The position numbers and the translations under genes are program-made. From positions 8-64,007 of the forward strand of contig JAFRCC010000006.1 in assembly GCA_017404545.1 (NCBI GenBank): a stretch of 64,000 nt of DNA, written 5' to 3'. The DNA is from Clostridia bacterium. Lineage in GTDB: Bacteria > Bacillota > Clostridia > TANB77 > CAG-508. Shown here in pieces: positions 3,178 through 51,800 of the stretch. Below the pieces are notes generated by a model. It was given only the letters and a program-made list of their open reading frames with translations. It ran no database searches and was not told where the DNA came from. Each line of letters starts with the position of its first letter. Position 1 is the stretch's first letter.

Positions 3178-4290
3178 ATGGATAACGAGCTAGTAAGTGA
3201 AGTGAATATGGTAAAAAATCATTCCGAAGCCACTAAAATTGTTTATGAAAGAGCGGTTAAAAAATATACTGATTTTTGGTCAATGTCTTTGGAAGAACTG
3301 TTAGAAGAGGCGGAAAATGAAGAAGATAAAGGCATAAAATGGAAAAAAAGAAAATTAAAAAGGAGATTGATTCAATATCGACAACATTTACTTGAAAATT
3401 TCTCTTTAAATACAGCGCACATCTATTTCAATCCCATAACAGTTATTTACAGATATTATGAAATAGAAATAATCGATTTACCTAAAATTAACGAAAAAAG
3501 TTTAAAAAAACCAGAACCTATCCAATTCAAAGATTTACCTGATAAAGAAATCATAAGACAAGCTATAAATATTGCAACTCCTACAATGAAAGCAATAATA
3601 TATTTTATGGCGTCTAGCGGTTGTGCTAGAACTGAAACCTTGAATTTAACTATCGGAGATTATATTGGAGCCCTATCAGAATATACAAACAAAACTAACA
3701 TATACGACATAATAAATGAATTAAACGAAAATAATAATATTATTCCAACATTTAGTATTTTAAGACAAAAAACGGGAAAATATTACACTACCTATTGTAG
3801 TCCTGAAGCAGTAAAGGCTATAAATTTATATTTGCTCGATAGAACTGACTATTTAACAGATTATAAACCTTTATTCAGAATAAATTCAATTTATTTTAAT
3901 GCCAAATTTATAGAAATAAATAATAAACTAGGATTAGGAAAAGTAGGCTCTTATAATCGATTTAGAAGCCATATGTTACGTAAGTTTCACGCCTCCGCAC
4001 TATATAACGACGGTATGAGCTTAGATAAAGTCAATGACTTGCAGGGAAAAGCTAAAAACAAAACCGACCAAGCTTATTTTATGACTAATCCCGAAGATTT
4101 AAAACACGAATATATCAAACATCTTCCGGCTGTAACTATAAATCAAGATGTTGAAAAGCTATCTATCAAATCTCCGGAATTTATTCATATGGAAAATGAG
4201 AATAAAGAGTTAAAATCAGATTTAGACGAACTTAAAAGCAAAATTAAAAATATTGAAAATTTCGTTAAAAATTCCGGAGATGTCTTGTAG
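3178..4290 (+). CDS. int: tyrosine recombinase / phage integrase
   Basis: ARTETL region (first Arg). C-terminal HMLRKFHAS...LQGKA...AYF gives the H-x-x-R...H...Y catalytic pattern. Sits at the element boundary. Confidence 0.8.
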   Translation: MDNELVSEVNMVKNHSEATKIVYERAVKKYTDFWSMSLEELLEEAENEEDKGIKWKKRKLKRRLIQYRQHLLENFSLNTAHIYFNPITVIYRYYEIEIIDLPKINEKSLKKPEPIQFKDLPDKEIIRQAINIATPTMKAIIYFMASSGCARTETLNLTIGDYIGALSEYTNKTNIYDIINELNENNNIIPTFSILRQKTGKYYTTYCSPEAVKAINLYLLDRTDYLTDYKPLFRINSIYFNAKFIEINNKLGLGKVGSYNRFRSHMLRKFHASALYNDGMSLDKVNDLQGKAKNKTDQAYFMTNPEDLKHEYIKHLPAVTINQDVEKLSIKSPEFIHMENENKELKSDLDELKSKIKNIENFVKNSGDVL

Positions 4291-9956: not shown

Positions 9957-11936
9957 ATGGCTTATAATCCAAAAGGACTGTTAAAAAAGTTCATCGAAGA
10001 TAATTATTCAGATGAAATTGAAGAATGCAAGTCATTACACCGACAGTCCAAAGTTAGTATTGATTTTGTAAAATTGAATCAATACCTCTTAGATGAAAGC
10101 GGTAAAGATTTTTTTCATTGGCGGATGTATTCATTCATTCCCGCTATTGAAGAATTTTACAATACTAACTTAACTCCAAAAGAACATATCAGTTTTAAAT
10201 TCATTAATGTACCTGAAACAGTTGAATTGCATAACTTAGACGCTACTAACAACAAAGAATGGATTTCTTGTAAAGCGATGGTTAAAAACATCACAGATAT
10301 TCGAGTAGACTTGAAACAAGCCGTTTATGAATGTCAAGAATGTCTTAAATTAACCGTCGTTAATGTGGCTGATAGTAATAATATTTTAATTCCGACTGTT
10401 TGTGAAAAATGTCAAGGAAAAAGGTTGAAACTTCTGAAAGATAGTAGCAATTACAGAGATTATCGACTGGTTAAGCTTGAAGAACCTTTAGAACTGCGAA
10501 AGGGAGGCAGTACAAGAGAATTAAAAGGCTATATGCAGGATTATCTTGCGAGCCCTTATCATAATATCAAAGCGGGAGATGTTGTCGATGTTACTGGAGA
10601 ATTTAGGGTTGAACCTCGTAAAGTACGGGGAAAATCAGACGGCTTTGAATTTCTAATCGATATTCATAATATAACTCCCGTTGATGATGCTTTTGAAGAT
10701 TACCGTTTGACTGAATCTGATAAAGAGATGATAATTGAGTTATCTAAAAGGGACGATATTTATGATTTGTTAGTTAATACTCTTGCTCCTGAAATCTTCG
10801 GTCATAAAACTGTCAAAGAAGGCTTAATTTTGCAGTTATTTGAAGGAAGCAGACCGGTCGATGATGTTTTCAAGAATAATAGTATGGAGAGATGGACTTC
10901 TCATATCCTTTTGATAGGTGACCCGGGAATTGGAAAATCTCAATTGGTAACTGCTGTTAATAAAAGAGCTCCTAAAATCATCAGTATTGCAGGAACTAAT
11001 ACAAGCCAATCCGGACTTACAACAAGCGCCGTAAAAGACGAACTAACGGGGACTTGGACGATGGAAGCCGGCGGTGTAATCCTTGCAGATACTGGTTTAT
11101 TGTGTATTGACGAGTTCGACAAATTAACTCCTTCAGCTCAAAAAAGTCTTAATGAACCGATGGAGCAATTATCAGTATCATCTGCTAAAGCCGGTTTGGT
11201 TCAAACTATGACTGCTAGAACCAGTATATTGGCAGTAGCCAATCCTAAGTATTCTAAATTCATGGATTCAAAACCTATGAAAGAACAATTGGATATTGCC
11301 GATTCTACGCTATCTAGGTTTGATTTAATATTTGTTCTAAGGGACAATGTTAATGAAACTAAGGATAGAAATTTGGCTAAAACTCTATTGACTAAAAATT
11401 CTATTGATAATGATGTAGAAACTCTATCTGACGATTGTTTTAAAAAATATATTACTTATATGAAGGCTAATTGCTTTCCAGTTTTGACTGACGAAGTAAT
11501 TGATATTTTATCGGAGTTCTATGTAGAGGTAAGACAACAAGCTAGCAAAAGTTACGATGGCAAACCGATTACTGCAAGGGACTTGAAATCTTTAGAGCGT
11601 TTAACAATTGCCCGTGCTAAATGCGAGGGCAGAACTACAACGAAAGTTGAAGATGCTAAAGAAGCTATACGGATTTATAGTGAAAGTTTATACAGCTTAG
11701 GTTTGGACTTAACAACAGCGGGCGAGCTTGTAGGTGTTGCCTCTAACAAAGAAATGGATATAATTTTGGAAGTTGATAAAATGGTGAAAGCTAAAGCTGA
11801 ATATGAAGGACTTCCTTTGTCTAGTGAAAGTATACAGAATTTAAAACACGAATGCGGAGTATTATGTCAAGGTACTAATCTGGACTATAATGTCGTTGTG
11901 GAAGATGCAATAACGAAATTCGAAAAAAGACTATAA
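9957..11936 (+). CDS. mcm: MCM-family replicative helicase
   Basis: C4 zinc finger (CQEC...CEKC), Walker A ILLIGDPGIGKSQL, Walker B LLCIDEFDKL, arginine finger SRFDLIFVL. Confidence 0.9.
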   Translation: MAYNPKGLLKKFIEDNYSDEIEECKSLHRQSKVSIDFVKLNQYLLDESGKDFFHWRMYSFIPAIEEFYNTNLTPKEHISFKFINVPETVELHNLDATNNKEWISCKAMVKNITDIRVDLKQAVYECQECLKLTVVNVADSNNILIPTVCEKCQGKRLKLLKDSSNYRDYRLVKLEEPLELRKGGSTRELKGYMQDYLASPYHNIKAGDVVDVTGEFRVEPRKVRGKSDGFEFLIDIHNITPVDDAFEDYRLTESDKEMIIELSKRDDIYDLLVNTLAPEIFGHKTVKEGLILQLFEGSRPVDDVFKNNSMERWTSHILLIGDPGIGKSQLVTAVNKRAPKIISIAGTNTSQSGLTTSAVKDELTGTWTMEAGGVILADTGLLCIDEFDKLTPSAQKSLNEPMEQLSVSSAKAGLVQTMTARTSILAVANPKYSKFMDSKPMKEQLDIADSTLSRFDLIFVLRDNVNETKDRNLAKTLLTKNSIDNDVETLSDDCFKKYITYMKANCFPVLTDEVIDILSEFYVEVRQQASKSYDGKPITARDLKSLERLTIARAKCEGRTTTKVEDAKEAIRIYSESLYSLGLDLTTAGELVGVASNKEMDIILEVDKMVKAKAEYEGLPLSSESIQNLKHECGVLCQGTNLDYNVVVEDAITKFEKRL

Positions 11937-13638: not shown

Positions 13639-14307
13639 ATGAACGTAACAATCGATACTAGGGAAACAGACAGAATACGTCCGGCAATATTTTTCTTTTC
13701 TATTCGTAATAACGTTTCAGTTGAAGAATTGGAAACTGGGGACTATATATTTGAGGACAAGGGAAAACAAGCCGTTTTTGAATATAAAACCATGTCTGAT
13801 TTTATTAATTCAGTTTCAGAAGGTCGAGTGTTTAATCAAGCGATTGATCAAAGTAATGAGTTTATCAATCATTTCGTCATTATAGAAGGCACCGATGAGG
13901 ACAGAAAAAAGGAGTCAGAACGAAAGTATTGGACTAGTGGTGTAAATTTCACTAAAAAACAATTCTACGGTGCAATTGCTAGATTAAATACGTTTACAAC
14001 TGTTCTACGTGTTCCGGATAGAAAAACCGCTTTTGAGGTGATGGAGCAACAAGCTAAAAAATGTTTTGACGACAAAGTGCTCGCTAAGACATTTCCCAAA
14101 TCCGAAGGCAATTCAGCATTCAGATATTTGAGTTATTGTTGTCGAGGAGTGGGCGCTAAAACTGCTGAAAAAATTGTTCAAGAGTTAAAATTAAACAATC
14201 TAGAGGACATTTTAAATCTTAAAAAAGAGGATTTGATGAGCATTCATCGTATCGGTGCGACTACCGCAGATAATATACTTTCGCAAATACGTACGGACAT
14301 TTCATAA
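13639..14307 (+). CDS. XPF/ERCC4-family nuclease-like protein with C-terminal HhH2 domain
   Basis: GDY...EYKTMSDFINS resembles the ERCC4 GDY...ERK...DL motif, with Tyr replacing Arg. C-terminal GVGAKTAEKIVQEL...IHRIGATTADNIL is a tandem helix-hairpin-helix. Confidence 0.5.
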   Translation: MNVTIDTRETDRIRPAIFFFSIRNNVSVEELETGDYIFEDKGKQAVFEYKTMSDFINSVSEGRVFNQAIDQSNEFINHFVIIEGTDEDRKKESERKYWTSGVNFTKKQFYGAIARLNTFTTVLRVPDRKTAFEVMEQQAKKCFDDKVLAKTFPKSEGNSAFRYLSYCCRGVGAKTAEKIVQELKLNNLEDILNLKKEDLMSIHRIGATTADNILSQIRTDIS

Positions 14308-17215: not shown

Positions 17216-18307
17216 TTAATTTTCCATTAAACTTTCTTTTTCGGAGATATAATTTGAATAAATTTGTTTTTGAATATGTTTTTTATATTTAGTTAATTGT
17301 TCTATCTCTAAATTTATCATATATTGTTCCATATACTCATAATCTGGTTCGCCTTTATTGTCAGTAGGAACTAATATTATTTGTTCTCTCATTCTTTTAG
17401 CATTAAATTTATATCCATACATATATTTTACTTTTTGTTTCAGAATTATGGTTTTAAAGAATAATAACACGTGTTTATTGTCAGCATAGTTTTTTAAGTG
17501 AAATCTTTTTACATCATCGCTGAATAAGCAAGTATAAGGATGATAAAAGTTTTCTACTACGCTTCCATTATAATTAACACCTAATACATTTTTATCAATT
17601 GAATTATTGGAATTACTAACGTAATTAGTAATTCCATTGTTTAAATATGTTGCACCAATAAATGGAGTTGAGCCTGGGCTCATATTTGCTTTAGTTAATC
17701 TTTTTCCAGATGAAATTTTAAATAAATCTCGGATATAAAACTGACTCCAATTTTTATTCTCTAATGGTTCTAAGTCCTTATAAGTTAATTTATTTATTTT
17801 TTGATTTAAGTATTCTAAGTATTTATTTAACTTTTCTTGTTCTAAATTTAACATATAATTTCTCATTAAGTCCCAATCAGGATATCCATCGCTTAAAATA
17901 GGTAATTGGATTGTAAGTTCTTCAAATCTAGTTTTTGTTAATCCATACCCGTGGTTGAATATCCCATGATATTTGTTCAGAAGAGATACTATGAAAATCA
18001 TATGGTATTTTGTTAATTCTATAATTGGTCTTAAAACAAAAACGGTACTTTTATTTGCAAAAACTGTGGGCTGATAATAGGATAATCCAGCTCCCCCATC
18101 TCCTTGTTTATTCCAAGTAATAGCATGTTTATCATTAAGTTTTTCAATATTTACAAAAGCATCTACTCCGTTTTTCATCTTTTTTGCAGATATTAGTGGA
18201 TAAGCTCCTTCAGGTAAGTTTTGTGAATCGGAAATATCATTTTCAGTTTCTAATGAAAATATATCAGATACTTTAAAAGTTCCCCAATCTTTATTATAAA
18301 TGTCCAT
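17216..18307 (-). CDS. hsdS: type I restriction-modification specificity subunit (two target-recognition domains)
   Basis: 363 aa with duplicated halves and conserved coiled-coil spacers (LEQEKLNKYLEYLNQKI; LEIEQLTKYKKHIQKQI). Immediately downstream of hsdM. Confidence 0.7.
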   Translation of the reverse strand: MDIYNKDWGTFKVSDIFSLETENDISDSQNLPEGAYPLISAKKMKNGVDAFVNIEKLNDKHAITWNKQGDGGAGLSYYQPTVFANKSTVFVLRPIIELTKYHMIFIVSLLNKYHGIFNHGYGLTKTRFEELTIQLPILSDGYPDWDLMRNYMLNLEQEKLNKYLEYLNQKINKLTYKDLEPLENKNWSQFYIRDLFKISSGKRLTKANMSPGSTPFIGATYLNNGITNYVSNSNNSIDKNVLGVNYNGSVVENFYHPYTCLFSDDVKRFHLKNYADNKHVLLFFKTIILKQKVKYMYGYKFNAKRMREQIILVPTDNKGEPDYEYMEQYMINLEIEQLTKYKKHIQKQIYSNYISEKESLMEN

Positions 18308-20197
18308 TTAATCATCCTCAAAAAGATACTCTTTTCCATGAGATATGAAATCAAATTCAAAGGTTAAATAATCAGCCATTACATTTTCTAATTCATTTTT
18401 ACTAGGAATTTCATCATTAAAATAATAATAAGAGTGTAACCATTCATCATCATCTTTAACTGTTGATTTGACCATAAATTTGCTTTCAGCGTCTTTTTCA
18501 TCTCTCCAACATTGCAATAAATGTTTTCTTCTTTCAGCAACCCTATCGGTTTCGACAATTCCAGTATGCTTTTTCAATCTGTATCCGTCATCTTTAAAAT
18601 TAATAAATTTGCTTCGTTTTTCTGGGGGGTGAGGATTATGAGCTGTGAAAATTGCTATAACTGGATTTACTCCCCGCCTACGAAATACATGTTTTGGATT
18701 GAGAGTAATAACTCCTTCTAAAGTATGCTCTTTCAAAATTTGTTTTTTAATTTCTTTATCATCATCATTTGTCCCGACCATTACTGATTGAGGAACTATA
18801 ACTGCACATTTACCATTATCTCCTAAAGAATCCAGCAATCGTTTGATAAAATTTATTTCAGACGTATCTTGAGAATATGGAGGGTTCATCAAACCAACAG
18901 TATAATTTTCTTTTTTCAAATCATCAACTTCACATCTAAAGAAATCTCTTAATTTAAGATTACTTTTACCATCTCCTCTTAAAATCATATTTGTTGTTGC
19001 TATGGTAAATAAATGAGGTCTTAATTCAATACCGTGTAAATTATTTAATTTTATATTTCTTTTTTCGCCCTCATCTGTTGTCTGAGATATCATTTTATTC
19101 ATTCCAGCAATTAAAAAACTTCCCGTACCACAACAAGGGTCAAATATTTTGTCTGTTGGTTTAATTTCTAATAATTCACAAAATAATTCAGTAATATGTT
19201 TGGGAGTCAATACAATTCCTAATGAACTACCGTCAACTCCACTATATTTAATAAATTCGGTGTAAAAATATCCTAAAATATCGACATTAACGGTAGTTAT
19301 CGATGGGAAAATTTTATTTCTTATAAATTCTGCGAAATATTTGAGGGGTGTTTTTTTTAAGGTTGGGTCTATTGTATTTAATGTTTCATCATCTTTTATT
19401 AATGTAAATTGGTTTAATATGATTTCTTCTTTATCTCCAACTTCACTACTTTGAAGGTTGTCTTTCATTGCTTCGTAGATTTTTTTTCCATCAGTTCCAC
19501 CTTTACGTTTTCCTTTTAAATCATCTAAATTTAAACCTTCATTTAGTGCTAATAATATTGCAGAAACTACTAATGGTTTTTGAGTATCACCTAATTGACC
19601 ATAGTTTCTTAAATGTTTGTTTAATTCTTTTGATTTTTTTATAACTAGTTCTAATTCCAATTCTTTTTGAGAAGGCTCCCCTAATACTTCTTCTTTATAA
19701 TAATCGTTAATATTATCCTCATTAAAATTTTCAAAATCATCTACTTCTTCCAATAATTTATAAGAATTTTCATCAACAAAGATGGGTCTTATAGTAAAAT
19801 TTTCAGTTCCACTACAACCAAAAGCAAAAGCTTTTTTATAAGAGGATTTTTTAAGAATATGGTTTGCGTAGTGCAAAGCTCCATTTTCTGCATAATTTTT
19901 AATAGCATTTTCACTAGATAAATCTAAATTCTTCTGATTATCGTCGAGGTAAAGGGCTTGTTTTGAGGATTCTCTTTTATCTTCGATGACTATTACAAAT
20001 TCTCCAACTAATCCTATAAATTCAGGAAACCCTTTGTTTTCTCCGGGATTACTTTCGATATTTTTTGTCGCTCCGTTTAATGCTTCATCAATTTCAGGAT
20101 TGCTACTTATTTGTTCATCATATTCTATATCAGCGTCCTTTAATAATCCTCGCACTATATCATCAGTCTTTCTCTCACTAACCATTTTCCCACTCAA
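18308..20197 (-). CDS. hsdM: type I N6-adenine DNA methyltransferase subunit, N-terminally extended
   Basis: Motif I DPCCGTGSFL and motif IV LMNPPYS. 629 aa. Confidence 0.8.
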   Translation of the reverse strand: MSGKMVSERKTDDIVRGLLKDADIEYDEQISSNPEIDEALNGATKNIESNPGENKGFPEFIGLVGEFVIVIEDKRESSKQALYLDDNQKNLDLSSENAIKNYAENGALHYANHILKKSSYKKAFAFGCSGTENFTIRPIFVDENSYKLLEEVDDFENFNEDNINDYYKEEVLGEPSQKELELELVIKKSKELNKHLRNYGQLGDTQKPLVVSAILLALNEGLNLDDLKGKRKGGTDGKKIYEAMKDNLQSSEVGDKEEIILNQFTLIKDDETLNTIDPTLKKTPLKYFAEFIRNKIFPSITTVNVDILGYFYTEFIKYSGVDGSSLGIVLTPKHITELFCELLEIKPTDKIFDPCCGTGSFLIAGMNKMISQTTDEGEKRNIKLNNLHGIELRPHLFTIATTNMILRGDGKSNLKLRDFFRCEVDDLKKENYTVGLMNPPYSQDTSEINFIKRLLDSLGDNGKCAVIVPQSVMVGTNDDDKEIKKQILKEHTLEGVITLNPKHVFRRRGVNPVIAIFTAHNPHPPEKRSKFINFKDDGYRLKKHTGIVETDRVAERRKHLLQCWRDEKDAESKFMVKSTVKDDDEWLHSYYYFNDEIPSKNELENVMADYLTFEFDFISHGKEYLFEDD

Positions 20198-20628: not shown

Positions 20629-21426
20629 ATGGCTCTTCACATTGCTTTAGACGGCGTTAATGGCGTTGGAAAAACAACAATGATTGAAAAACTGAAAGAA
20701 TTTTTAGTCAATAAATCATATAACGTCAAGACACTAACCCAACCCGGTTTTAATCCTATCGTATCTATATTAGAAGATTATAATTTAACAATTTCCGAAA
20801 AGGAACTGTTGTTAGCTGTAGACAGAAGTATAACATTTAATTTTGAAAATCTTGATCAATACGATGTCGTTTTGTGGGATAGGAGCATCTTAACAAGTTA
20901 CGCTTATCACACAGACGGAATCGTAAAACCGTCATTTATTCACAATATTAACAAATTTACGCCGGAAATGGATATCATCATCGTCATTACTCATTACGAG
21001 TACACCCAAGAGCAAGATTTTACTAATCGAGTTTGTTATGACCTAATCAAAAAATACGACGTACTCATCGAAGAGTTCAGTAATGCCTTCGAGGTCAAAT
21101 ATCTAGCTGATGATCCAGATAAGATGTTGGAAAATATTGTGGAAATTATTTTTCGTGAACTTCCCACTTGCAGTTGGTGCGGTAGACTGTTTAGAAAATC
21201 CGTTTCAAATAAGAAATATTGTTGTGATAACTGCAAGAAGTTCGCTAAAGAGGAGCAAAACAGAGATAACTTCAGAAATTATTATAATCGTTACAAAGAT
21301 ACAATGAGCGAGTCAAAAAAAGGAGCTTTAGGAAGTAAAGGTGCAAACCTACACGGGAAGGCAAATAAAGACCCCGAAATTGAAGCTCGTTTGATTAACC
21401 GTGAGAAAATGAGATTGGGATTATAA
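20629..21426 (+). CDS. thymidylate (dNMP) kinase-like protein with C-terminal zinc ribbon
   Basis: P-loop LDGVNGVGKTT. TMPK-like WDRSILTSYAYH (DRY...AY motif). C-terminal CSWCG...CCDNCKK. Confidence 0.55.
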   Translation: MALHIALDGVNGVGKTTMIEKLKEFLVNKSYNVKTLTQPGFNPIVSILEDYNLTISEKELLLAVDRSITFNFENLDQYDVVLWDRSILTSYAYHTDGIVKPSFIHNINKFTPEMDIIIVITHYEYTQEQDFTNRVCYDLIKKYDVLIEEFSNAFEVKYLADDPDKMLENIVEIIFRELPTCSWCGRLFRKSVSNKKYCCDNCKKFAKEEQNRDNFRNYYNRYKDTMSESKKGALGSKGANLHGKANKDPEIEARLINREKMRLGL

Positions 21427-21481
21427 AATATCTAATAAGAATACCTTCACCAAATCGAGATGATTTTTATTATAGTTTTTT

Positions 21482-21751
21482 ATGAAGAGGATTGAAGTTA
21501 AAATGTCTAATAAACCTTATTCAAATCTAATCTGTCCGAATTGTGAAAATAAGGGAGATTATGAGCTAGATGATAATGAGGAAATAGTTTGTATTCATTG
21601 CGGACTAGTTATCAAATCTCCATATCCCTATTCAGCAGGTATTAGGTTTAAGACATTAACGGAGATTCTAGACGATAAAAGAAATGAAAGAAAAGAAAAT
21701 AAACGTTGGAGGAGAGAGAATGAGCGACGTAAAAAGTTTCAAAAAATATAG
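21482..21751 (+). CDS. zinc-ribbon protein
   Basis: CPNCEN...CIHCG four-Cys ribbon; basic C-terminus. Confidence 0.45.
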   Translation: MKRIEVKMSNKPYSNLICPNCENKGDYELDDNEEIVCIHCGLVIKSPYPYSAGIRFKTLTEILDDKRNERKENKRWRRENERRKKFQKI

Positions 21752-21953
21752 TTGGTTAATAAGTGCAATATTTGCAGTAATTGTTTTAATTAGCGGTTTA
21801 ACTGCTAATGATATCAGTTTTTTACCGGTAGAACTTCAAGCAAAAGCCGTCGGAGTTATAGGTGCTTGCGCTTTGATTGTAAAAATTTTACCTGAAAATT
21901 ATAGAGTTTATATTGCCGAAAATCTCGTAAGAAACGAATATGAAGGAGAATGA
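21720..21953 (+). CDS. small membrane protein (start at the internal ATG behind GGAGAGAGA)
   Basis: Hydrophobic ORF. Confidence 0.4.
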   Translation: MSDVKSFKKYSWLISAIFAVIVLISGLTANDISFLPVELQAKAVGVIGACALIVKILPENYRVYIAENLVRNEYEGE

Positions 21954-22177
21954 TTATGTCTAATGAGAGAACTCCATATTTACAAGAATTAATCAGATTA
22001 TCTTCAAAAGCAACATTAGTAATTGCTAGCCACCTCTTTAATGAGGAATACGACCCCGAAGATACTTATAAAGATATAAGAGAGGCTTTAAAATTCTTGA
22101 AAAATGACGATAAATTAATCGTGAATGAAAAGGAAATCGATGAGGAATTTATTGAAATAAGTATTGAATTGAGATGA
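21950..22177 (+). CDS. hypothetical protein
   Basis: ORF. Confidence 0.4.
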   Translation: MIMSNERTPYLQELIRLSSKATLVIASHLFNEEYDPEDTYKDIREALKFLKNDDKLIVNEKEIDEEFIEISIELR

Positions 22178-22521
22178 TAAAAATGAGCAAACCTTTAACA
22201 GAAATAATTCCTTGGAGGCGTACAATTTGGACTTACGGGTTTGTAAAGACTACTTTGTCCGGTTCCTTAATATCTACCGGCGTTGTACTAATCTTTAACG
22301 GAGTTACAAATCATCCGTTGTTTCACGGAATTAACGAAATTGCTATAATTTGCGGGTTCATTGCTATAATTCTCGCAATAGCGGTTATAACTAGTATAGA
22401 TAAGTACAAGGAAAAGACCAAAAGAGAGGAGCTTGAAGCGATAGATAAACAAATTGACGATAGAGCACATGAGATAGCTGAACAGAAGGTCTTAGAATAT
22501 CTTGATAGAATGAGTAAATAA
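22174..22521 (+). CDS. membrane protein
   Basis: ORF with TM helices. Confidence 0.4.
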   Translation: MIKMSKPLTEIIPWRRTIWTYGFVKTTLSGSLISTGVVLIFNGVTNHPLFHGINEIAIICGFIAIILAIAVITSIDKYKEKTKREELEAIDKQIDDRAHEIAEQKVLEYLDRMSK

Positions 22522-22536
22522 AGGAGGCTTCAAATT

Positions 22537-23190
22537 ATGGCTGAAGTTGGTAAAATTAATATTAATGAATTGGTATCTCCGGAATGGAATCCACGGGAAA
22601 TTTCCGACGACGAAATGGAAAAGTTAAAAACTAGTTTAAAAGAGTTCGGTTATGTAGATTACTTAGTCGTTAATAAGGTCAATAATCATATAGTCGGTGG
22701 AAACCAAAGGTATCATGCTCTAAAAGAGATGGGATTTGAGGAACTTGATGTAATATTTATTGAAGAAAGTGATTTAAATAGGGAAAAGACACTCAACATC
22801 GCACTCAATAAAATTTCCGGAGATTGGGACAACGAAAGACTTGAAGAATTATTAAATGAGTTAAATACTGCGGATATTGAATTAATCCTTACAGGGTTTG
22901 ACGAATTTGAATTAGAAGGATTATTATTTGATACTGACGAGGACTTAGACGACGAAGTTGTAGATAGAAGTATTGAAGAGGCTTTTAATAATATTTATGA
23001 AGGTTTAAGCGAGAATGAGGAACTAAACGACGCCAAATCAGACAATCGTATTATTAGTTTCTATACGGCTGATGAAGATTTGTATTATAAGTTCCTAAAC
23101 TATTTAGGATTAAATTCAATAAAGCTCGATAAAAAAAGAAATGTACGTTTGGAGGACTTAGAATGTTTAAAAGAACCGGTCATGGACTAA
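22537..23190 (+). CDS. ParB-like nuclease domain protein (possible small terminase or DNA-binding function)
   Basis: NPREIS...L..SL.EFGYVDYLVVNKVNNHIVGGNQRYHALKEMGFEELDVIF matches the ParB N-terminal/sulfiredoxin-like fold. Confidence 0.6.
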   Translation: MAEVGKININELVSPEWNPREISDDEMEKLKTSLKEFGYVDYLVVNKVNNHIVGGNQRYHALKEMGFEELDVIFIEESDLNREKTLNIALNKISGDWDNERLEELLNELNTADIELILTGFDEFELEGLLFDTDEDLDDEVVDRSIEEAFNNIYEGLSENEELNDAKSDNRIISFYTADEDLYYKFLNYLGLNSIKLDKKRNVRLEDLECLKEPVMD

Positions 23191-24395
23191 ATCTCACTAG
23201 TATATTTTTAATTTGCCCTATTCCAGTAAGCATGGACGTTTATCCGGTTTGTACTTTTAATTGTCTTTATTGCTTTGGAAAGGCTTCAGTCTCAAAGAAA
23301 AACAGAACTCAACTGAATACTCCTAAGCCTGAAACTCTCGATAATTTCTTAACAAAGCATCTCGCTGAAGCTCCTAAAGAATTAAATCAAGAGGAAAAAT
23401 TTGTAAAATGGTACATTCATAACAGAAAAGCAGTTCAAATAGGTGTGGTTAGTGATCCTTTTGACTTCTTAGAGTATAAATACGGATATACTTATGATAT
23501 TCTACAAGTTTTCAGCAAGCATCACTATCCTATCAGATTAAGTACAAAAGGTGTACTTTACGCTAAAAATAAATATCTGAAACTGTTCCGGGAAAATAGG
23601 GACGTTTGGAAACTCGGAGTAAGTCTGTTTACTAAAGATGAGGAAACTCTCACCAATGTAGAAAAAAACGGGTTTTCATACAATAAGAGATTAAAAGCAA
23701 TACGTAAAGCGGTAAATAATAGTATCGATGTTGTAGTACGTTTCGGACCATATATTCCGGGAATTAATGAGGATTATGAGGAAATAATGGCTGATTTGCA
23801 TGACGCTGGAGTTAAAGATTTTCAGCTAAGGAACTTTGAAAAGTCTCCGTTTTTAACTAACGCTGAAAAGAAAAATTACGAAAAACTAAATCAAATCAGT
23901 AAAATCGATTTAAACAAATTCTGTAAAAATCACATGAGTAAAGAGCGCCACGGTGAATTAAGTTACACTAAAAGCGTAGAATACACTAAGAAGTTCAGGA
24001 AAATAGCAGAAAAATACGGTATGAACTTCTATACTCAAAATGACCCGGCTAGAGTTCACGGATTAAGTGAGAATTGTTGTGCAGTTAAAGAGGACTTTAT
24101 TTTGAAGGATTACAATTTGTGTTCTGCACTGTTCGTTGCTAAAGAAAAAGGTGAGGTTCACTATGAAGATGTCGCTAAGAATTTTAACCATTTGTTAGGT
24201 GATATTCCAACAGCGAACACTTGTTTTTTCACTGAATCTAAGAAATTAGTTCATCTTAAAGATTTATTCCAAAACGCTTGGAACAATCCAAAATCCCGTA
24301 GAGGATTATGTAAAAGATTTGGTTATCATCTTTTACCAGACAGAGTAGATGAAAACGGAAACATAGTATACAAGATTGATGAAAAACGCTTATAA
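23163..24395 (+). CDS. radical SAM protein, SplB-like (COG1533 DNA-repair-photolyase-like)
   Basis: CTFNCLYC gives the CxxxCxxC cluster motif, embedded in VYPVCTFNCLYCFG as in SplB-like radical SAM proteins. Confidence 0.55.
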   Translation: MFKRTGHGLNLTSIFLICPIPVSMDVYPVCTFNCLYCFGKASVSKKNRTQLNTPKPETLDNFLTKHLAEAPKELNQEEKFVKWYIHNRKAVQIGVVSDPFDFLEYKYGYTYDILQVFSKHHYPIRLSTKGVLYAKNKYLKLFRENRDVWKLGVSLFTKDEETLTNVEKNGFSYNKRLKAIRKAVNNSIDVVVRFGPYIPGINEDYEEIMADLHDAGVKDFQLRNFEKSPFLTNAEKKNYEKLNQISKIDLNKFCKNHMSKERHGELSYTKSVEYTKKFRKIAEKYGMNFYTQNDPARVHGLSENCCAVKEDFILKDYNLCSALFVAKEKGEVHYEDVAKNFNHLLGDIPTANTCFFTESKKLVHLKDLFQNAWNNPKSRRGLCKRFGYHLLPDRVDENGNIVYKIDEKRL

Positions 24396-24418: not shown

Positions 24419-25048
24419 TTGAAAACTGATGAGGAATATCTACAATTGGCTGAAAAATACGAGAGTTTACAAAAATTGCCTCGTGAAAAGGTTCCTTCTT
24501 GGAGAAAAAGATGCTGTTACCTCCTTGCCGGAGCTAAAAGGAGCTTAGCCTATGTTGCAGAAAATGAAATGGGAGTGACCCAAGATGACCCGGATTTTCC
24601 CAAAGCGATTAGTTCCCTAAAGAATCTATCCTCAAAGCACGAGTGGGTAATGTGGAGTCAGTTATTCGATATTGAAGAGCAATCAATTAAGCTAGAAAAA
24701 AGGCAAAACAAATTCGATGAGCTAGAGGACGTTGAACTGAAGATGCTTGAGATTGTAATTAAATCTTTAAGTAAGTTCATTGCCGAGTTCGTCCGGAACC
24801 CCGTTAAAAAGGACGGTGATGAGTATAGTCTTATGAGTAAGATTGATTTGTATAATAAGATTTTATCAGCGTTTGATAAGGCTGATGTTATTTTACGCCG
24901 TTTAACAGGACAACCTTTGGAATATACTAGAATTGATAGTAATAATGTTATCGATGTTAAAGCTAAGGTTAGTGAGGTTAAGACTCTAAAAGATGAAGAG
25001 GCTGAAGCTGAAGAATACTTTAAAAAATTAGAATCTGAAATGAAATAA
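24419..25048 (+). CDS. hypothetical protein (possible small terminase subunit by position)
   Basis: ORF immediately upstream of the large terminase. Confidence 0.3.
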   Translation: MKTDEEYLQLAEKYESLQKLPREKVPSWRKRCCYLLAGAKRSLAYVAENEMGVTQDDPDFPKAISSLKNLSSKHEWVMWSQLFDIEEQSIKLEKRQNKFDELEDVELKMLEIVIKSLSKFIAEFVRNPVKKDGDEYSLMSKIDLYNKILSAFDKADVILRRLTGQPLEYTRIDSNNVIDVKAKVSEVKTLKDEEAEAEEYFKKLESEMK

Positions 25049-25218: not shown

Positions 25219-26598
25219 TTGGATATTATGAATATTGCAGAGAGTACGGATTGGGACGGAATTTGGCACAACCAAAGAAACCACTTCAAAGCAACTATTT
25301 ATAATAACGACTTTATACCTCATAAACCATTCACTAATCAAGTAAAATTTCTTATTTATCCTTCTGAAGAACTCTTTTATGGAGGACAGGCTGGAGGAGG
25401 CAAGAGCGATTGTTTACTCATGTCTGCATTGCAATACGTTGAGGACAAGCATATTCCCGAAGGTGAGAACAAATTAAATTATAATGCTTTAATCATTAGG
25501 CGTACTTTAGAGGACTTAGATATGCCTAATGCTATTATGGATAGGGCTAAACAATGGTTATTACCTCTTGAAGATAAATTAGGCGTAGTTTGGAAAGAAA
25601 AAAAGAAACGTTTCATATTTCCAAGCGGTGCAACTTTAACTTTCAGATACCTCTCTCATAATAAACACTTGAACAGCTATCAGGGAGCTGAATTGCAATT
25701 TGTTGGCTTTGATGAGCTGACACAATTTCCGGAAAATCAATATCAATACTTACATTCTAGACTAAGGAAATTGGAGGACAGCGATATTCCAATTAGAATG
25801 AGAAGTGCAAGCAATCCCGGTGGAATAGGTCATGATTGGGTGAAAAAAAGATTTATCGATGAGGAAAGTTCATTACCATTCATTCCCTCATCTTATACTG
25901 ATAATAAATACCTAAATCAAAAAGAGTACGTAAAGCAATTAGATAAGCTAGACGAACTAACAAAACTTCAACTCAAATACGGTGATTGGAACGCTATATT
26001 AAAAGAAGGTTTGTTAATTAATCGAGACGGATTGAAATCAGCGTTAATATCCTACAATATCTATAAGGATTGGCAACCGGCGTTTTGTAGTATCGGAATC
26101 GACCCCGCTAGTACTGGAAACGATAAATTTGCTATGAGTTGTCTAGTATATTTTAACAATGGAAATATTGTATTAGTTGATCTAGACGCCACCCCTTCTG
26201 CGTTTCCTGAAGAAAGACTTAAAAACTTCATAATTCGCAACGCTAAGTGGAATCCTTACGTCGTTAATTTCGAACAAGAGCCCGGAAGTGATTCAACTTA
26301 CGCTTTAAAACATTGGCAAGGCGTACTAAAGGATTTAGTCAGTAAATACGGAATTATAGTCAAAAAAACTCAATCTAGTAACAGCAAATACAATAGAGCA
26401 AGACCTACCGCTAATTTAATCAGACAAAATAGATTATTCTTTGATGATAGAATAAATCCTGAAAGATTAAGAGCTTTATTCAATCAATATGTTTATATTC
26501 ACCCCGATAAAGAAGTAATGAAAGAATATCCGAGCCCTGATGAATTAGATAGTTTAGGATATGGATTTATGGAGATACAGAATATTATTAGATTATAA
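25219..26598 (+). CDS. terL: terminase large subunit
   Basis: Walker A GGQAGGGKSD, Walker B VGFDELTQF; size and position. Confidence 0.85.
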   Translation: MDIMNIAESTDWDGIWHNQRNHFKATIYNNDFIPHKPFTNQVKFLIYPSEELFYGGQAGGGKSDCLLMSALQYVEDKHIPEGENKLNYNALIIRRTLEDLDMPNAIMDRAKQWLLPLEDKLGVVWKEKKKRFIFPSGATLTFRYLSHNKHLNSYQGAELQFVGFDELTQFPENQYQYLHSRLRKLEDSDIPIRMRSASNPGGIGHDWVKKRFIDEESSLPFIPSSYTDNKYLNQKEYVKQLDKLDELTKLQLKYGDWNAILKEGLLINRDGLKSALISYNIYKDWQPAFCSIGIDPASTGNDKFAMSCLVYFNNGNIVLVDLDATPSAFPEERLKNFIIRNAKWNPYVVNFEQEPGSDSTYALKHWQGVLKDLVSKYGIIVKKTQSSNSKYNRARPTANLIRQNRLFFDDRINPERLRALFNQYVYIHPDKEVMKEYPSPDELDSLGYGFMEIQNIIRL

Positions 26599-26652: not shown

Positions 26653-27405
26653 ATGAGCGATAACAATAAAGTTCAAGAATTAAACAAAAATGAAATAATC
26701 CAAAAAGAAAAACCTCAAAAGGTAATTAAAACTGAAAATAAAGCATTAAAATTTGTTGAAGATAAACTAAATAATTTCATTAATGATGGTAATGATTCTC
26801 CTAAGGAAATTATAACCGAACCAAAGAAAATTAAAAAAGATAATGAGGAATATGATTTTTCTTGTAGTATAGATGAAGTAAGAACTAATTGGAGAGGTAT
26901 AGAAAAAGAAGATAGGAGAAAATGTTATGTAAAAGTTTTAAATGATAGATTAATTCTTGATAAAACCGGTATAATGATTCAAAGCGATTTAGGAAGCAGA
27001 ACAATTTATTATTCAGATATAAGTAGCATAGATTTTGATAAATCCGGCGTATTTCACGTTACTAATTCTGTTAAAATTATTATGAGAGGTGGAGAATTTA
27101 TTACTTTAATACATGTAAATCAGTTAAAATATAATTTAATCAATAGAAAATGGAAAAAATATAAAGAAAATAAAGATAATGTGAAAAATTCTAATTTAGA
27201 TGAATCTCAAAGCCTCGCTGATGAACTAATTAAATATTCAGAATTATACGAAAAAGGATTTATTTCTGAAGATGAATTTAATACTTTAAAACAAAAATTA
27301 ATAAATTCTCCTACAGAGTCCTCAAATAACTATTGTGGAAATTGTGGTGCGGAGATTGTAGATGATTCTAATTTCTGTACTAATTGCGGAAATAAAATTA
27401 AATAA
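26653..27405 (+). CDS. hypothetical protein with SHOCT-like motif and C-terminal zinc ribbon
   Basis: LIKYSELYEKGFISEDEFNTLKQKLI followed by CGNCG...CTNCG. Confidence 0.4.
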   Translation: MSDNNKVQELNKNEIIQKEKPQKVIKTENKALKFVEDKLNNFINDGNDSPKEIITEPKKIKKDNEEYDFSCSIDEVRTNWRGIEKEDRRKCYVKVLNDRLILDKTGIMIQSDLGSRTIYYSDISSIDFDKSGVFHVTNSVKIIMRGGEFITLIHVNQLKYNLINRKWKKYKENKDNVKNSNLDESQSLADELIKYSELYEKGFISEDEFNTLKQKLINSPTESSNNYCGNCGAEIVDDSNFCTNCGNKIK

Positions 27406-27577: not shown

Positions 27578-28147
27578 TTATTCCCATCCGTCATCGATTT
27601 TTCCACATTTATTTTCATTTACAATATTATAAAACAAACTAGCCAATTCTTTTTTATCAAATAAAACATTATATCTAACCGTATTACAAGTTATTAAAAC
27701 TTTTTTCTGGTTTAATTCAACATCAGTGATTGTATCCCAAGCTATTCTCATATCTTCTGATTTATTTAAAGCTTTTTTAAATACTAATCCATTATCCGGA
27801 ATATATAATTCAGATTTCACTCTTAATTGTTTTTTAGAAGTTTTAGTGTGCCCGCTACCATATAAATTATATCCGTGTATTTCATAGACAGTTTCAGGCA
27901 AAGTAACATAAACCGGAACAGTTAATTTATATAATAAATGAGGTCTTTGATTAAAGAATTCATCTACTAAATCAAATGTAGTGTCAGTAATCGGGTTCAA
28001 CCCCTTACTTTCGACAAATTCCTGAAAATAATTAAAAGAAATTCCAAATTCTTTACTTTTTTTTCTAGCGACTGCAAATGGATTTCCATCACCCATTATG
28101 TCATTTTTAGCTTTTTTCAATTTTTTAAACATATTCGGTTCCTTCAC
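27578..28147 (-). CDS. hypothetical protein encoded on the opposite strand inside the packaging module (moron-like)
   Basis: Only minus-strand gene between 20.6 and 56.4 kb; followed by a 270-bp AT-rich intergenic region. Confidence 0.5.
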   Translation of the reverse strand: MKEPNMFKKLKKAKNDIMGDGNPFAVARKKSKEFGISFNYFQEFVESKGLNPITDTTFDLVDEFFNQRPHLLYKLTVPVYVTLPETVYEIHGYNLYGSGHTKTSKKQLRVKSELYIPDNGLVFKKALNKSEDMRIAWDTITDVELNQKKVLITCNTVRYNVLFDKKELASLFYNIVNENKCGKIDDGWE

Positions 28148-50813: not shown

Positions 50814-51800
50814 ATGATAAAGAAAAGCGAAATTAAGCTAATTGCTGAAAAAATCAAAGAATATGTAGAAAAAAATAAGGAAATACCCAATTCAATAGAA
50901 GTAAATAAGAAAAAATACTCAAAAACCGAGTGTTTATACATTTTAGGATATGCTATTGATCATCTAAATGAAAATTTTGATTTTAAAAGCGGTAAAGTAG
51001 CAAGTAATCCTGTAATTACTGTCATTAATGAAGATATTTATGAGTCTGATTATAAAGACCAATCTAAAAGATTATGCCAATATTTAAATCAAAACGGTAA
51101 AGCTCCGAATTACATTAAATCAGTTAAATCCTCAACTAAGATTTCGCCGGATTTGGAGTTGTACGCTTTTGCTAAAATAATCGATTATTATTACAAAAAT
51201 AAAAGATTGCCTAATTATTGCAATTATAATTCTAGCGTATTGGCTAGCGTTAAGTCCAGTAAAAACAATTGCAGTAATCCTTATAAATCATCTCCTCACC
51301 CTACTAAAAAGGGTTGCGATGCTATGGGTCAAAATACTGGTTATTTTTGTGCAATTTGTGCACTGCAACATTCTTTATTCAAATTCGGTATCTACGTTTC
51401 TCAAAGCCAATTAGCAAAATGGGCGGGGACAACTAGCTCCGGAACTTCTCATCAAGGAATCCGTACTGCCGTTGCAATGGTAAACAGTAAATATCACGTT
51501 AATATTTCCGTAGATGAGAAAAACTTCAGTGATTTAGGTTTAGAAGGGTTGGCAAAACTTATCTGTAAAAGTAACGTTGATGTGATAATTCATTTGTTAT
51601 ATCGTCTTAAATACGGTCATTATGAGTCAATTAACGAAATTGACGTGAAAAATAAGATGTTTAAGATTTTAAACTCACTTGGAAACAAATGCTCTGGTGG
51701 TTGCTATTGCGGTTACGTTGAGGATAGATCATTAGCTGTAGAAAAATCATATATCGGTGGAATTAGTCAGAAATCCATCATTATTTTAACTAAAAATTAG
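50814..51800 (+). CDS. pei: pseudomurein endoisopeptidase (Pei-like lysin) with two N-terminal pseudomurein-binding repeats
   Basis: Two PMBR-like repeats (IKLIAEKIKEYVEKNKEIPNSIEVNKKKYSKTECLYILGYAI; LCQYLNQNGKAPNYIKS...LELYAFAKIIDYYYKNKRLPNYCNY). C-terminal Cys/His peptidase-like domain (GYFCAICALQHS...HLLYRLKYGHYESIN). Start in GAGCTGATAAATATG. Confidence 0.75.
   Translation: MIKKSEIKLIAEKIKEYVEKNKEIPNSIEVNKKKYSKTECLYILGYAIDHLNENFDFKSGKVASNPVITVINEDIYESDYKDQSKRLCQYLNQNGKAPNYIKSVKSSTKISPDLELYAFAKIIDYYYKNKRLPNYCNYNSSVLASVKSSKNNCSNPYKSSPHPTKKGCDAMGQNTGYFCAICALQHSLFKFGIYVSQSQLAKWAGTTSSGTSHQGIRTAVAMVNSKYHVNISVDEKNFSDLGLEGLAKLICKSNVDVIIHLLYRLKYGHYESINEIDVKNKMFKILNSLGNKCSGGCYCGYVEDRSLAVEKSYIGGISQKSIIILTKN

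Follow-up and report, generated by a model that had tools for sequence, protein, structure and literature searches.

A ParB-like protein and a radical SAM enzyme as the candidate core of DNA-modification clusters in viruses of anaerobes

Background

What a radical S-adenosylmethionine (SAM) enzyme does among the packaging genes of a virus is the question raised by the DNA described here, a stretch of 64,000 nucleotides of contig JAFRCC010000006.1 (the whole of which is called the window below), where a provirus carries a gene for such an enzyme just ahead of its terminase genes. An initial annotation of the sequence had grouped this gene with two upstream neighbours as a cluster for nucleotide or DNA metabolism, and had offered DNA repair, the modification of DNA or nucleotides, or an anti-defence activity as its function. 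The three open reading frames (ORFs) in question are all present on the forward strand:

20629-21426, +, dTMP-kinase-like domain (residues 1-175) followed by a Cys4 zinc ribbon and a basic tail, 265 residues
22537-23190, +, ParB N-domain protein, 217 residues (Pfam ParB_N, 2e-8, above cutoff)
23163-24395, +, radical SAM enzyme resembling spore photoproduct lyase (SPL), 410 residues (Pfam PF04055, 1e-11)

The functional unit among them is the overlapping pair of ParB and radical SAM genes, and not the trio. This pair appears to be the fixed core of modification clusters in hundreds of uncultured viruses of apparent anaerobes, and probably constitutes a DNA-modification module. The more specific proposal made here, that the two proteins are a base-modification core which installs a chemical handle on a pyrimidine without the use of oxygen, could equally well prove right or wrong. 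Among the functions originally offered, modification of DNA is strongly favoured by the gene neighbourhoods and fusions described below, whereas repair and nucleotide-level metabolism fare poorly.

Hypermodification of phage DNA is known to start from hydroxymethyl-pyrimidines, which are supplied by thymidylate-synthase-like enzymes or by the oxygen-dependent TET/JBP dioxygenases. Phage gene clusters for the subsequent steps, with ParB-like proteins, kinases, amino-acid:DNA transferases (AADTs) and TET-associated glycosyltransferases (TAGTs), have been recognised before. What is new is the presence of a radical SAM enzyme as the invariant core of such clusters, in viruses of anaerobes that include viruses of archaea.

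The radical SAM enzyme and its family

Membership of the radical SAM superfamily is indicated by both profile and fold. The Pfam Radical_SAM model scores 45.7 bits against a cutoff of 29.5, in agreement with the initial annotation, and the AlphaFold2 model (pLDDT 90) has a partial TIM-barrel fold, the top Foldseek matches of which are all radical SAM enzymes, SPL and NifB among them. The cluster motif CxxxCxxC has the sequence MDVYPVCTFNCLYCFG, and its cysteines C30, C34 and C37 are invariant both in 47 full-length aligned members of the family and in the six closest relatives; the Fe-S motif on which the original assignment rested is thus conserved in homologues. K129 and P196 are likewise invariant in the 47 members, and conservation exceeds 90% at C18, D25, G94, E104, R176, R193, C305, C306, W373 and N374, as well as in a GGE-like motif of the WGGLSDPF type that reads IGVVSDPF in the window. 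C18 and P21, which lie in the N-terminal extension of the protein, are shared with distant homologues, and the extension is therefore real. Motif and fold together suggest that the enzyme cleaves SAM reductively.

The proposed affinity to the SplB/COG1533 group is upheld at the level of fold and clade, while membership of the curated families fails. SPL is the best-covering solved structure (Foldseek TMq 0.48, E = 9e-7; TMq 0.45-0.48 over PDB entries 4FHC-4FHG) and shares the CxxxCxxC core, and the window enzyme would resemble it further in having DNA as substrate and a chemistry centred on a thymine-methyl radical. However, the two proteins are only 14% identical and differ in the C-terminal domain, where the window enzyme has the conserved CC305/306 and WN373/374. 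Among the NCBIfam models the closest is PA0069, at 60.9 bits where 360 are required, and Rv2578c reaches 46 bits where 430 are required, both being radical SAM families of the COG1533 group. No SPL-named NCBIfam model is found among the matches at E ≤ 0.1, and a phmmer search of PDB sequences gave nothing at E ≤ 1.

It could still be argued that the virus carries a DNA repair enzyme of the SPL type, as the structural match, the COG1533-type best profile matches and the name 'DNA repair photolyase' given to one homologue in its source would suggest. This is highly improbable: no SPL-named model is matched and the COG1533-type scores lie far below their cutoffs, the hosts seem to live in gut and rumen habitats that receive no ultraviolet light, and neither the fusions to glycosyltransferase and kinase domains nor the ParB and terminase context would make sense for a repair enzyme. 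SplB belongs to a context of repair, whereas the context of the present family is one of modification.

The extent of the family is easily underestimated. A word-index search with the window protein returned only five homologues. This count is misleading, since 3559 representatives were recovered at E < 1e-3 when the search was made exhaustively with a profile, and 278 at E < 1e-30, with mostly full-length alignments. A second profile search gave at least 1683 protein clusters at E ≤ 1e-10, and at least 346 viral contigs in IMG/VR encode a member, the loci in viral contigs having been sought with a 13-member subset of the alignment. The exact window protein occurs on 21 metagenomic contigs. 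A scan of genome contigs yielded just two distant, partial relatives, and tblastn with the window enzyme and a central family member found no match in 50,697 GenBank phage records. Family members are named in their sources only as 'hypothetical protein' (in Methanobrevibacter sp., Prevotella sp. and Bacteroides fragilis) or as 'DNA repair photolyase'. The protein has no match in PADLOC, and a role as a defence system was rejected for that reason. Full-text literature searches, which did not cover Iyer et al. 2013 (reportedly the paper that defined TAGTs and gene neighbourhoods of this kind), returned no description of the family.

The ParB-like protein

The product of the upstream, overlapping gene has a ParB/Srx N-domain, with a score of 34.6 bits against a cutoff of 26.3 for ParB_N (PF02195) and with the motifs WNPR and GGNQR (of the general forms NPR and GxxR). 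It had been described as a ParB-like nuclease, and of this description the ParB domain can be retained, while nothing points to a nuclease. The closest relatives of the N-domain are ParB domains fused to DNA methyltransferases of phages. The protein matches phrog_620 at 4e-39 and phrog_498, a methyltransferase N-domain, at 2e-38; its domain shares 45-49% identity with phage methyltransferase N-domains, and in a blastn search with the whole cluster the sole matches were to the ParB domain of methyltransferases. The N-domain alone is matched, and no helix-turn-helix family was found in the protein by Pfam at E ≤ 0.1. The models for chromosome-partition ParB proteins score well below their cutoffs (TIGR00180, 22.8 against 58.45; Noc, 33.7 against 315).

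The 3' end of the ParB gene overlaps the start of the radical SAM gene by 28 nucleotides. The best explanation of the arrangement would be that the two genes are translationally coupled and expressed together with the packaging genes of the provirus, and it is proposed that the ParB-like protein acts as a partner that loads the radical SAM enzyme onto DNA or activates it.

Gene neighbourhoods, fusions and cassette exchange

The context of the family was surveyed over 83 loci, which fall into 27 lineages at 80% radical SAM identity. Genes within 7 kb on either side were clustered, and the clusters were labelled using Pfam and hidden Markov models (HMMs) derived from the clusters themselves. The recurrent neighbours, with the number of lineages in which each is found, are as follows:

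22 of 27, upstream, ParB-like protein of the same cluster as the window ParB
20 of 27, downstream, terminase large subunit (TerL)
15 of 27, TAGT
13 of 27, P-loop kinase of the AAA_18/Ploopntkinase3 type
9 of 27, AADT (weak match)
7 of 27, directly downstream of the radical SAM gene, SAM synthetase-like gene (SAMS)
6 of 27, second, small radical SAM protein
6 of 27, HAD/kinase-like protein
6 of 27, cytidylyltransferase
5 of 27, GNAT

The usual order is ParB, a variable cassette, the radical SAM gene, sometimes a SAM synthetase gene, then the terminase small subunit (TerS) and TerL. With the enzyme normally encoded one to four genes upstream of TerL, as in 20 of the 27 lineages, the remark in the initial annotation that such enzymes are seldom met in viral packaging regions fails for this family. 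Four of the five lineages in which ParB was not found have less than 3 kb of upstream sequence; where there is enough of it, ParB is present in 22 of 23 lineages and so behaves as an obligate partner of the enzyme. An alternative explanation for this association is that ParB serves packaging or partition, for example in the handling of a pac site, and that the radical SAM gene is an unrelated passenger. The pair does lie immediately before TerS and TerL, and ParB-like genes near terminases are common in phages, but ParB and the radical SAM gene remain together beside no fewer than four unrelated types of TerL and in overlapping reading frames, and modification cassettes are inserted between the two genes, such that there is very little to be said for a passenger.

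These cassettes are interchangeable, consisting of a TAGT, or of a P-loop kinase and an AADT, or of a GNAT protein; cytidylyltransferase and HAD/kinase-like genes accompany the TAGT in six lineages. The connection can also be physical, as the long members of the family are fusions to TAGT (PF20691), which may precede or follow the radical SAM domain; in one protein a P-loop kinase, a radical SAM domain and a TAGT are joined. Glycosylation and the kinase/AADT route alternate even inside single groups defined at 80% identity. Locus L006, with the order rSAM2-ParB-TAGT-rSAM (rSAM, radical SAM gene), and locus L007, with the order rSAM2-ParB-kinase-AADT-rSAM-SAMS, encode radical SAM proteins that are 88% identical, and those of L042 and L044 are 92% identical beside differing cassettes. 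A cultured isolate of B. fragilis has a prophage with the full module (protein P0346, NCBI tag ACIXT9_02270), in the order ParB-AADT-kinase-rSAM-TerS-TerL-portal, whereas the window and the loci L069 and L054 have minimal versions, with ParB and the radical SAM gene but no AADT, kinase or TAGT. Given that near-identical radical SAM proteins are found with alternative cassettes, the enzyme is independent of which tailoring step is present, and its action either precedes those steps or is unconnected with them.

No conventional source of hydroxymethyl-pyrimidine was found in these neighbourhoods. Neither a TET/JBP protein (PF12851) nor a thymidylate-synthase-like hydroxymethylase was found in the recurrent neighbour clusters, in the window ORFs scanned, or, among the top 25 of 46 Pfam families, in 145 further neighbour proteins. 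The scan of the window with the neighbour-derived HMMs found no tailoring kinase, AADT or glycosyltransferase, so that neither the kinase and AADT encoded alongside M6 gp53 (see below) nor the wider set of a phage thymidine-hypermodification cluster (5-HMUDK and AADT, or a glycosyltransferase) has an equivalent there; the bacterial-phage relatives have these enzymes.

Several other features of the loci were recorded. The second radical SAM paralogue (approximately 280 residues) often lies just upstream of ParB, for instance at L006:4812-5654 and L007:2019-2876, and corresponds in sequence to the first two thirds of the large one (E of about 1e-30); L001, L093 and L095 also have, after the large enzyme, a separate radical SAM-SPASM protein. 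Three of the long family members, P0009, P0023 and P0026, have inteins interrupting the radical SAM gene; one of these inteins carries a LAGLIDADG domain and another an endonuclease domain. At L099:5228-5908, a few genes upstream of ParB-AADT-kinase-rSAM in a prophage of the B. fragilis type, lies the gene for an ASCH-domain protein; it has been proposed that such domains read modified bases.

Comparison with known modification systems

The closest parallel to the arrangement is found in the phage thymine dioxygenases (5mYOX), one subclass of which, in clade C1 of TET-JBP, needs an adjacent ParB-like activator and is linked to P-loop kinases and AADTs (2026 study, PMC13229309). Across 5mYOX contigs the commonest neighbours are glycosyltransferases (31%), ParB proteins (27%) and terminases (19%) (PMC13229309). 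The two systems therefore have in common a small ParB N-domain gene beside the gene for a base-modifying enzyme, the same set of neighbours (glycosyltransferases, P-loop kinases, AADTs and terminases), what would be a post-replicative mode of action, and tailoring enzymes that vary downstream. They differ in the catalytic protein, which here is a radical SAM enzyme and not an Fe(II)/2-oxoglutarate dioxygenase, in the lack of any PF12851 protein noted above, and in the hosts, which here are strict anaerobes wherever they can be inferred. The sharing of a neighbourhood suggests that the radical SAM enzyme stands in the place of the dioxygenase. By analogy, ParB may activate radical SAM catalysis, the 5mYOX activators and the window ParB being likened by gene context and not by sequence comparison.

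ParB-like domains also serve DNA-modifying units in other settings. In the phage fusions of a ParB domain to a DNA methyltransferase the N-domain is an accessory to the modifying unit, as is proposed here, although the catalytic partner is a different one and ParB is a separate protein in the present module. A related archaeal virus (L097) has, at L097:8883-11834, the site of ParB and the large radical SAM gene, a 278-residue radical SAM paralogue, a ParB protein 72% identical to that of L093, a 251-residue protein that we take to be DpdA-like and a transporter of the Vut_1/YhhQ type. This set may be a 7-deazaguanine DNA-modification module that uses the same type of ParB, comparable to the DpdA/DpdB-type systems, in which DpdB is presumably ParB-like.

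The only characterised relative of the enzyme is gp53 of Pseudomonas phage M6, an N-alpha-glycinylthymine isomerase of the SPL-like radical SAM type that acts on thymine C5 substituents, and described as the first radical SAM enzyme for which participation in installing a modification of DNA was shown (PMC8989533). It is encoded with a P-loop 5-hydroxymethyldeoxyuridine (5-hmdU) kinase and an AADT. An hhalign comparison of the family with gp53 gives a probability of 97.4% and E = 1e-11 over 241 columns, comprising the radical SAM core only, at 20% identity; the A1 profile finds the gp53 sequence at E = 0.014. Outside the core the proteins differ, gp53 having a 120-residue N-terminal extension and another C-terminus. 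The M6 cluster has no ParB partner, and gp53 needs pre-formed glycinyl-thymine, whereas the present family also occurs with cassettes that hold only a glycosyltransferase, or with none.

From this relationship it might be supposed that the window enzyme too is a tailoring enzyme, which rearranges or trims a group already joined to thymine by kinase and AADT, with 5-hydroxymethyluracil (5hmU) provided by genes elsewhere. The homology of the cores is in line with such a role, as is the order ParB-AADT-kinase-rSAM at many loci, including the B. fragilis prophage, which amounts to the same enzyme set as gp51, gp53 and gp54 of M6 (PMC8989533). We nevertheless consider it quite unlikely. Radical SAM proteins of 88-92% identity occur with TAGT-only cassettes that lack both AADT and kinase, the minimal loci lack all three tailoring enzymes, direct sequence similarity to gp53 is marginal at the E value just given, and no family of pyridoxal phosphate-dependent decarboxylases was found in the Pfam scans of neighbours.

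Hosts

The hosts have a bearing on what chemistry is available. In the window they can be judged from two features of the provirus:

25219-26598, +, TerL, marker of the packaging module (Pfam Terminase_6N and Terminase_3; phrog_979, 8e-65)
50814-51800, lysin (pseudomurein-binding repeats; C39-like peptidase domain)

The nearest relatives of this TerL are those of the Methanobacteriales viruses PhiF3, psiM100 and psiM2, at 35-39% identity, and the lysin is of the endoisopeptidase type expected for viruses of that order. Taken together, the two therefore point to a methanogen with a pseudomurein wall, a strict anaerobe, as the host, and by these sequence relationships the window is identified as a provirus whose host is a methanogen of the Methanobacteriales. 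For other loci the TerL relatives are from phages of Flavonifractor, Butyrivibrio, Faecalibacterium and C. difficile, and the sources named for family members include Methanobrevibacter, Prevotella and B. fragilis. Every host that could be inferred for the family is a strict anaerobe. An oxygen-dependent dioxygenase cannot work in these hosts. That radical SAM enzymes take over from oxygenases in anaerobes is well known, tetrapyrrole synthesis being one example.

Proposed function

On these grounds we tentatively suggest, at somewhat less than an even chance, that the radical SAM enzyme and ParB are an oxygen-independent counterpart of TET/JBP, converting thymine (or 5-methylcytosine) in duplex DNA to a hydroxymethyl-type handle. 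The ParB-like protein would engage the viral DNA and recruit or activate the enzyme, as in the ParB-dependent thymine dioxygenases. A [4Fe-4S] cluster held by C30, C34 and C37 would cleave SAM reductively, and the resulting 5'-deoxyadenosyl radical would take a hydrogen atom from the C5-methyl group of a flipped-out thymine to leave a thymine-methyl radical. Such a radical is handled in the mechanism of SPL. It has also been postulated for M6 gp53 (PMC8989533). The thymine radical would then be oxidised, possibly by way of the conserved C18, C305 and C306, and trapped by water or another nucleophile, giving 5hmU or an equivalent handle without oxygen; formation of 5hmU from the thymine methyl group appears the most likely outcome. 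In the bacterial-phage relatives this handle would be elaborated by the TAGT, the P-loop kinase and AADT, or the GNAT cassette. The window has no tailoring cassette, and the simple product would therefore be the final one. The modified DNA would be packaged, and should withstand restriction. A stoichiometric use of SAM would agree with the frequent presence of a SAM synthetase-like neighbour.

It is also conceivable that the pair modifies DNA by another chemistry, such as C-methylation, methylthiolation, adenosylation or cross-linking of some base, which would have no connection with hydroxymethyl-pyrimidines, and is simply co-located with other modification genes. The pairing with ParB and the position before the terminase show no more than that DNA is the likely substrate; ParB-like partners serve the methyltransferase fusions and the DpdA-like/YhhQ set of L097 as well; and the additional conserved cysteines recall the covalent catalysis of RlmN and Cfr. 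We regard this as unlikely, for it leaves the physical fusions of the radical SAM domain to TAGT and kinase unexplained, and the TAGT and kinase/AADT cassettes need a hydroxymethyl acceptor for which no other source is found nearby. P-loop kinases of the hmU type and AADTs require a hydroxymethyl-pyrimidine in DNA (PMC8989533, PMC13229309). The same is true of TAGTs.

Several considerations weigh against a role in installing the handle. The substrate base, the product and the dependence on ParB are all deduced from gene context, and M6 gp53, the sole relative to have been characterised, is an isomerase that acts in tailoring and not in initiation. We know of no radical SAM enzyme that hydroxylates a DNA base. 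The function of the window enzyme may differ from that of the bacterial-phage members, because it is only 22-29% identical to the main clade. The AADT assignment is weak, with an E value of 2e-4 and a score that misses the Pfam cutoff, and a weak TET_JBP match could sit among the 21 lower-ranked of the 46 families of singleton neighbours. Finally, the loci span only 10 kb on either side, and a hydroxymethylase could be encoded elsewhere in the phage genomes.

The kinase-like protein and small neighbouring genes

The third member of the original trio opens the rightward gene block, and is separated from ParB by four small ORFs:

21482-21751, +, TFIIB-type zinc-ribbon protein, 89 residues (Pfam Zn_Ribbon_TF, 4e-6, just below cutoff)
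21720-22521, +, three small ORFs (approximately 77, 73 and 112 residues) between the zinc-ribbon gene and ParB

Its description as a dTMP-kinase-like protein with a Cys4 ribbon is borne out. Thymidylate_kin scores 42.2 bits against a cutoff of 27 over residues 7-119, the PHROG thymidylate kinase spans residues 2-174, the P-loop (DGVNGVGKTT) and DR motif (WDRSILTSYAY) are present, and the four cysteines of the C-terminal CxxC...C...C ribbon are invariant in 22 homologues (alignment A5). The dTMP-kinase equivalog TIGR00041 scores only 44.4 bits against a cutoff of 83.25. While residues 1-175 keep the P-loop and DRS...SYAY of the dTMP kinases (TIGR00041, PF02223), the zinc ribbon and basic tail are additional to them and are the invariant part of this family, namely the ribbon and then the segment EEQNRxNFRNYYxRYKDTMSE...GALGSKGANLHG. 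The family has 74 homologue clusters at 43-97% identity, and in alignment A5 the C-terminal 90 residues are almost invariant throughout. By contrast, in one clade of seven homologues the P-loop is replaced by DGIYVNVNH (GxGKT to YVNVNH), three of these having also lost part of the kinase domain, and in many others the DR arginine is G, T, D or Q-T. The conserved function thus seems to lie in the tail. Kinase activity is possible for the window copy, yet would not be the conserved function of the family, which is probably nucleic-acid binding or regulation. The protein was rejected as the 5-hmdU kinase of the module, as it shares the P-loop alone with the module kinases and its catalytic motifs are unconserved.

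In related archaeal-type viruses (L093 and L096) the order kinase-like gene, TFIIB-type zinc ribbon, small ORFs, ParB, radical SAM and terminase is kept, even where the kinase-like proteins are 48-69% identical and the radical SAM proteins only 22-27% identical to that of the window. L097 shares the synteny, with the set described above in place of the large radical SAM gene. However, L004, with a radical SAM protein 86% identical to the window's, has an N6/N4 DNA methyltransferase upstream in place of the kinase-like gene, and no such gene is found in the bacterial-phage loci of the module. The kinase-like gene is linked to the pair solely by synteny within the Methanobacteriales-type lineage, and with four ORFs intervening the trio is not one conserved unit.

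Another possibility is that the radical SAM enzyme modifies a free deoxynucleoside monophosphate, which the kinase-like protein then phosphorylates, or that it produces an uncommon sugar donor for the glycosyltransferase. In the window as in related archaeal viruses the kinase-like gene is found upstream, a dCTP deaminase/dUTPase gene is found near it in L096, and cytidylyltransferase and HAD/kinase-like genes are found with TAGT in the six lineages mentioned above. Such chemistry is nevertheless very unlikely, since P-loop and DR arginine are lost in part of the kinase-like family, L004 and all bacterial-phage loci lack the gene, 12 of the 27 lineages have the radical SAM gene but no TAGT, and the near-universal ParB partner indicates DNA as the substrate. 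The dCTP deaminase/dUTPase-family gene (L096:6207-6773) lies two genes upstream of the kinase-like gene, a hint that the latter belongs to a nucleotide-pool module in that lineage.

The TFIIB-type zinc-ribbon gene, directly after the kinase-like gene, is present in L088-L097, and its product is a possible regulator of late genes. The small ORFs at 21720-22521, one or two of them membrane-like, gave no notable Pfam or PHROG matches; genes are also called there in the identical contigs L088-L092.

Other features of the provirus

The provirus fills approximately 55 kb of the window, its head and tail genes extending to about 57 kb, and cellular-type metabolic genes (a SIS-domain protein, adenine deaminase and an ArgZ-like protein) lie on the minus strand from about 58.1 kb. 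Further markers are:

3178-4290, integrase
9957-11936, MCM helicase
13639-14307, ERCC4/HhH nuclease
24419-25048, +, TerS (phrog_6299, 6e-7), directly preceding TerL

Directly upstream of the cluster, and divergently transcribed, is an apparently complete two-subunit restriction-modification system (17216-20197, minus strand), in which a 629-residue protein has a full-length match to a Type IIG REase-MTase model (E = 4e-165) and a 363-residue protein matches a Type II specificity subunit (E = 1e-85). The region looks like a variable restriction-modification island, because the related virus L093 has other genes of this kind there, namely those for an HpaII-type endonuclease and a pair of C5 methyltransferases. 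At 844-1863, adjoining the integrase end of the provirus, is a gene for a Fic/DOC protein whose C-terminal domain is a winged helix; it matches the PADLOC SoFic defence model at 5e-57 and belongs either to the host or, as cargo, to the virus. A gene for a 250-residue protein that combines a SHOCT domain with a zinc ribbon at its C-terminus (26653-27405) is inserted between TerL and the portal gene, followed on the opposite strand by a 189-residue gene (27578-28147).

Conclusions

The source of the hydroxymethyl-type handle in viruses of strict anaerobes has been without explanation, and a widespread, hitherto unannotated core of ParB and a radical SAM enzyme would fill this gap. If confirmed, such radical SAM chemistry on DNA would be new, adding a further type of reaction to those that radical SAM enzymes perform on DNA and extending ParB-controlled base modification beyond the dioxygenases. 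The handle would feed both base-J-like glycosylation and amino-acid hypermodification in viruses of the gut, the rumen and other anoxic habitats, including those of methanogenic archaea. Modified DNA would accordingly be predicted in viruses of methanogens and in abundant phages of the gut and rumen, which would bear on the evasion of restriction, on biases in sequencing and assembly, and on the development of anaerobic DNA-labelling enzymes as tools.

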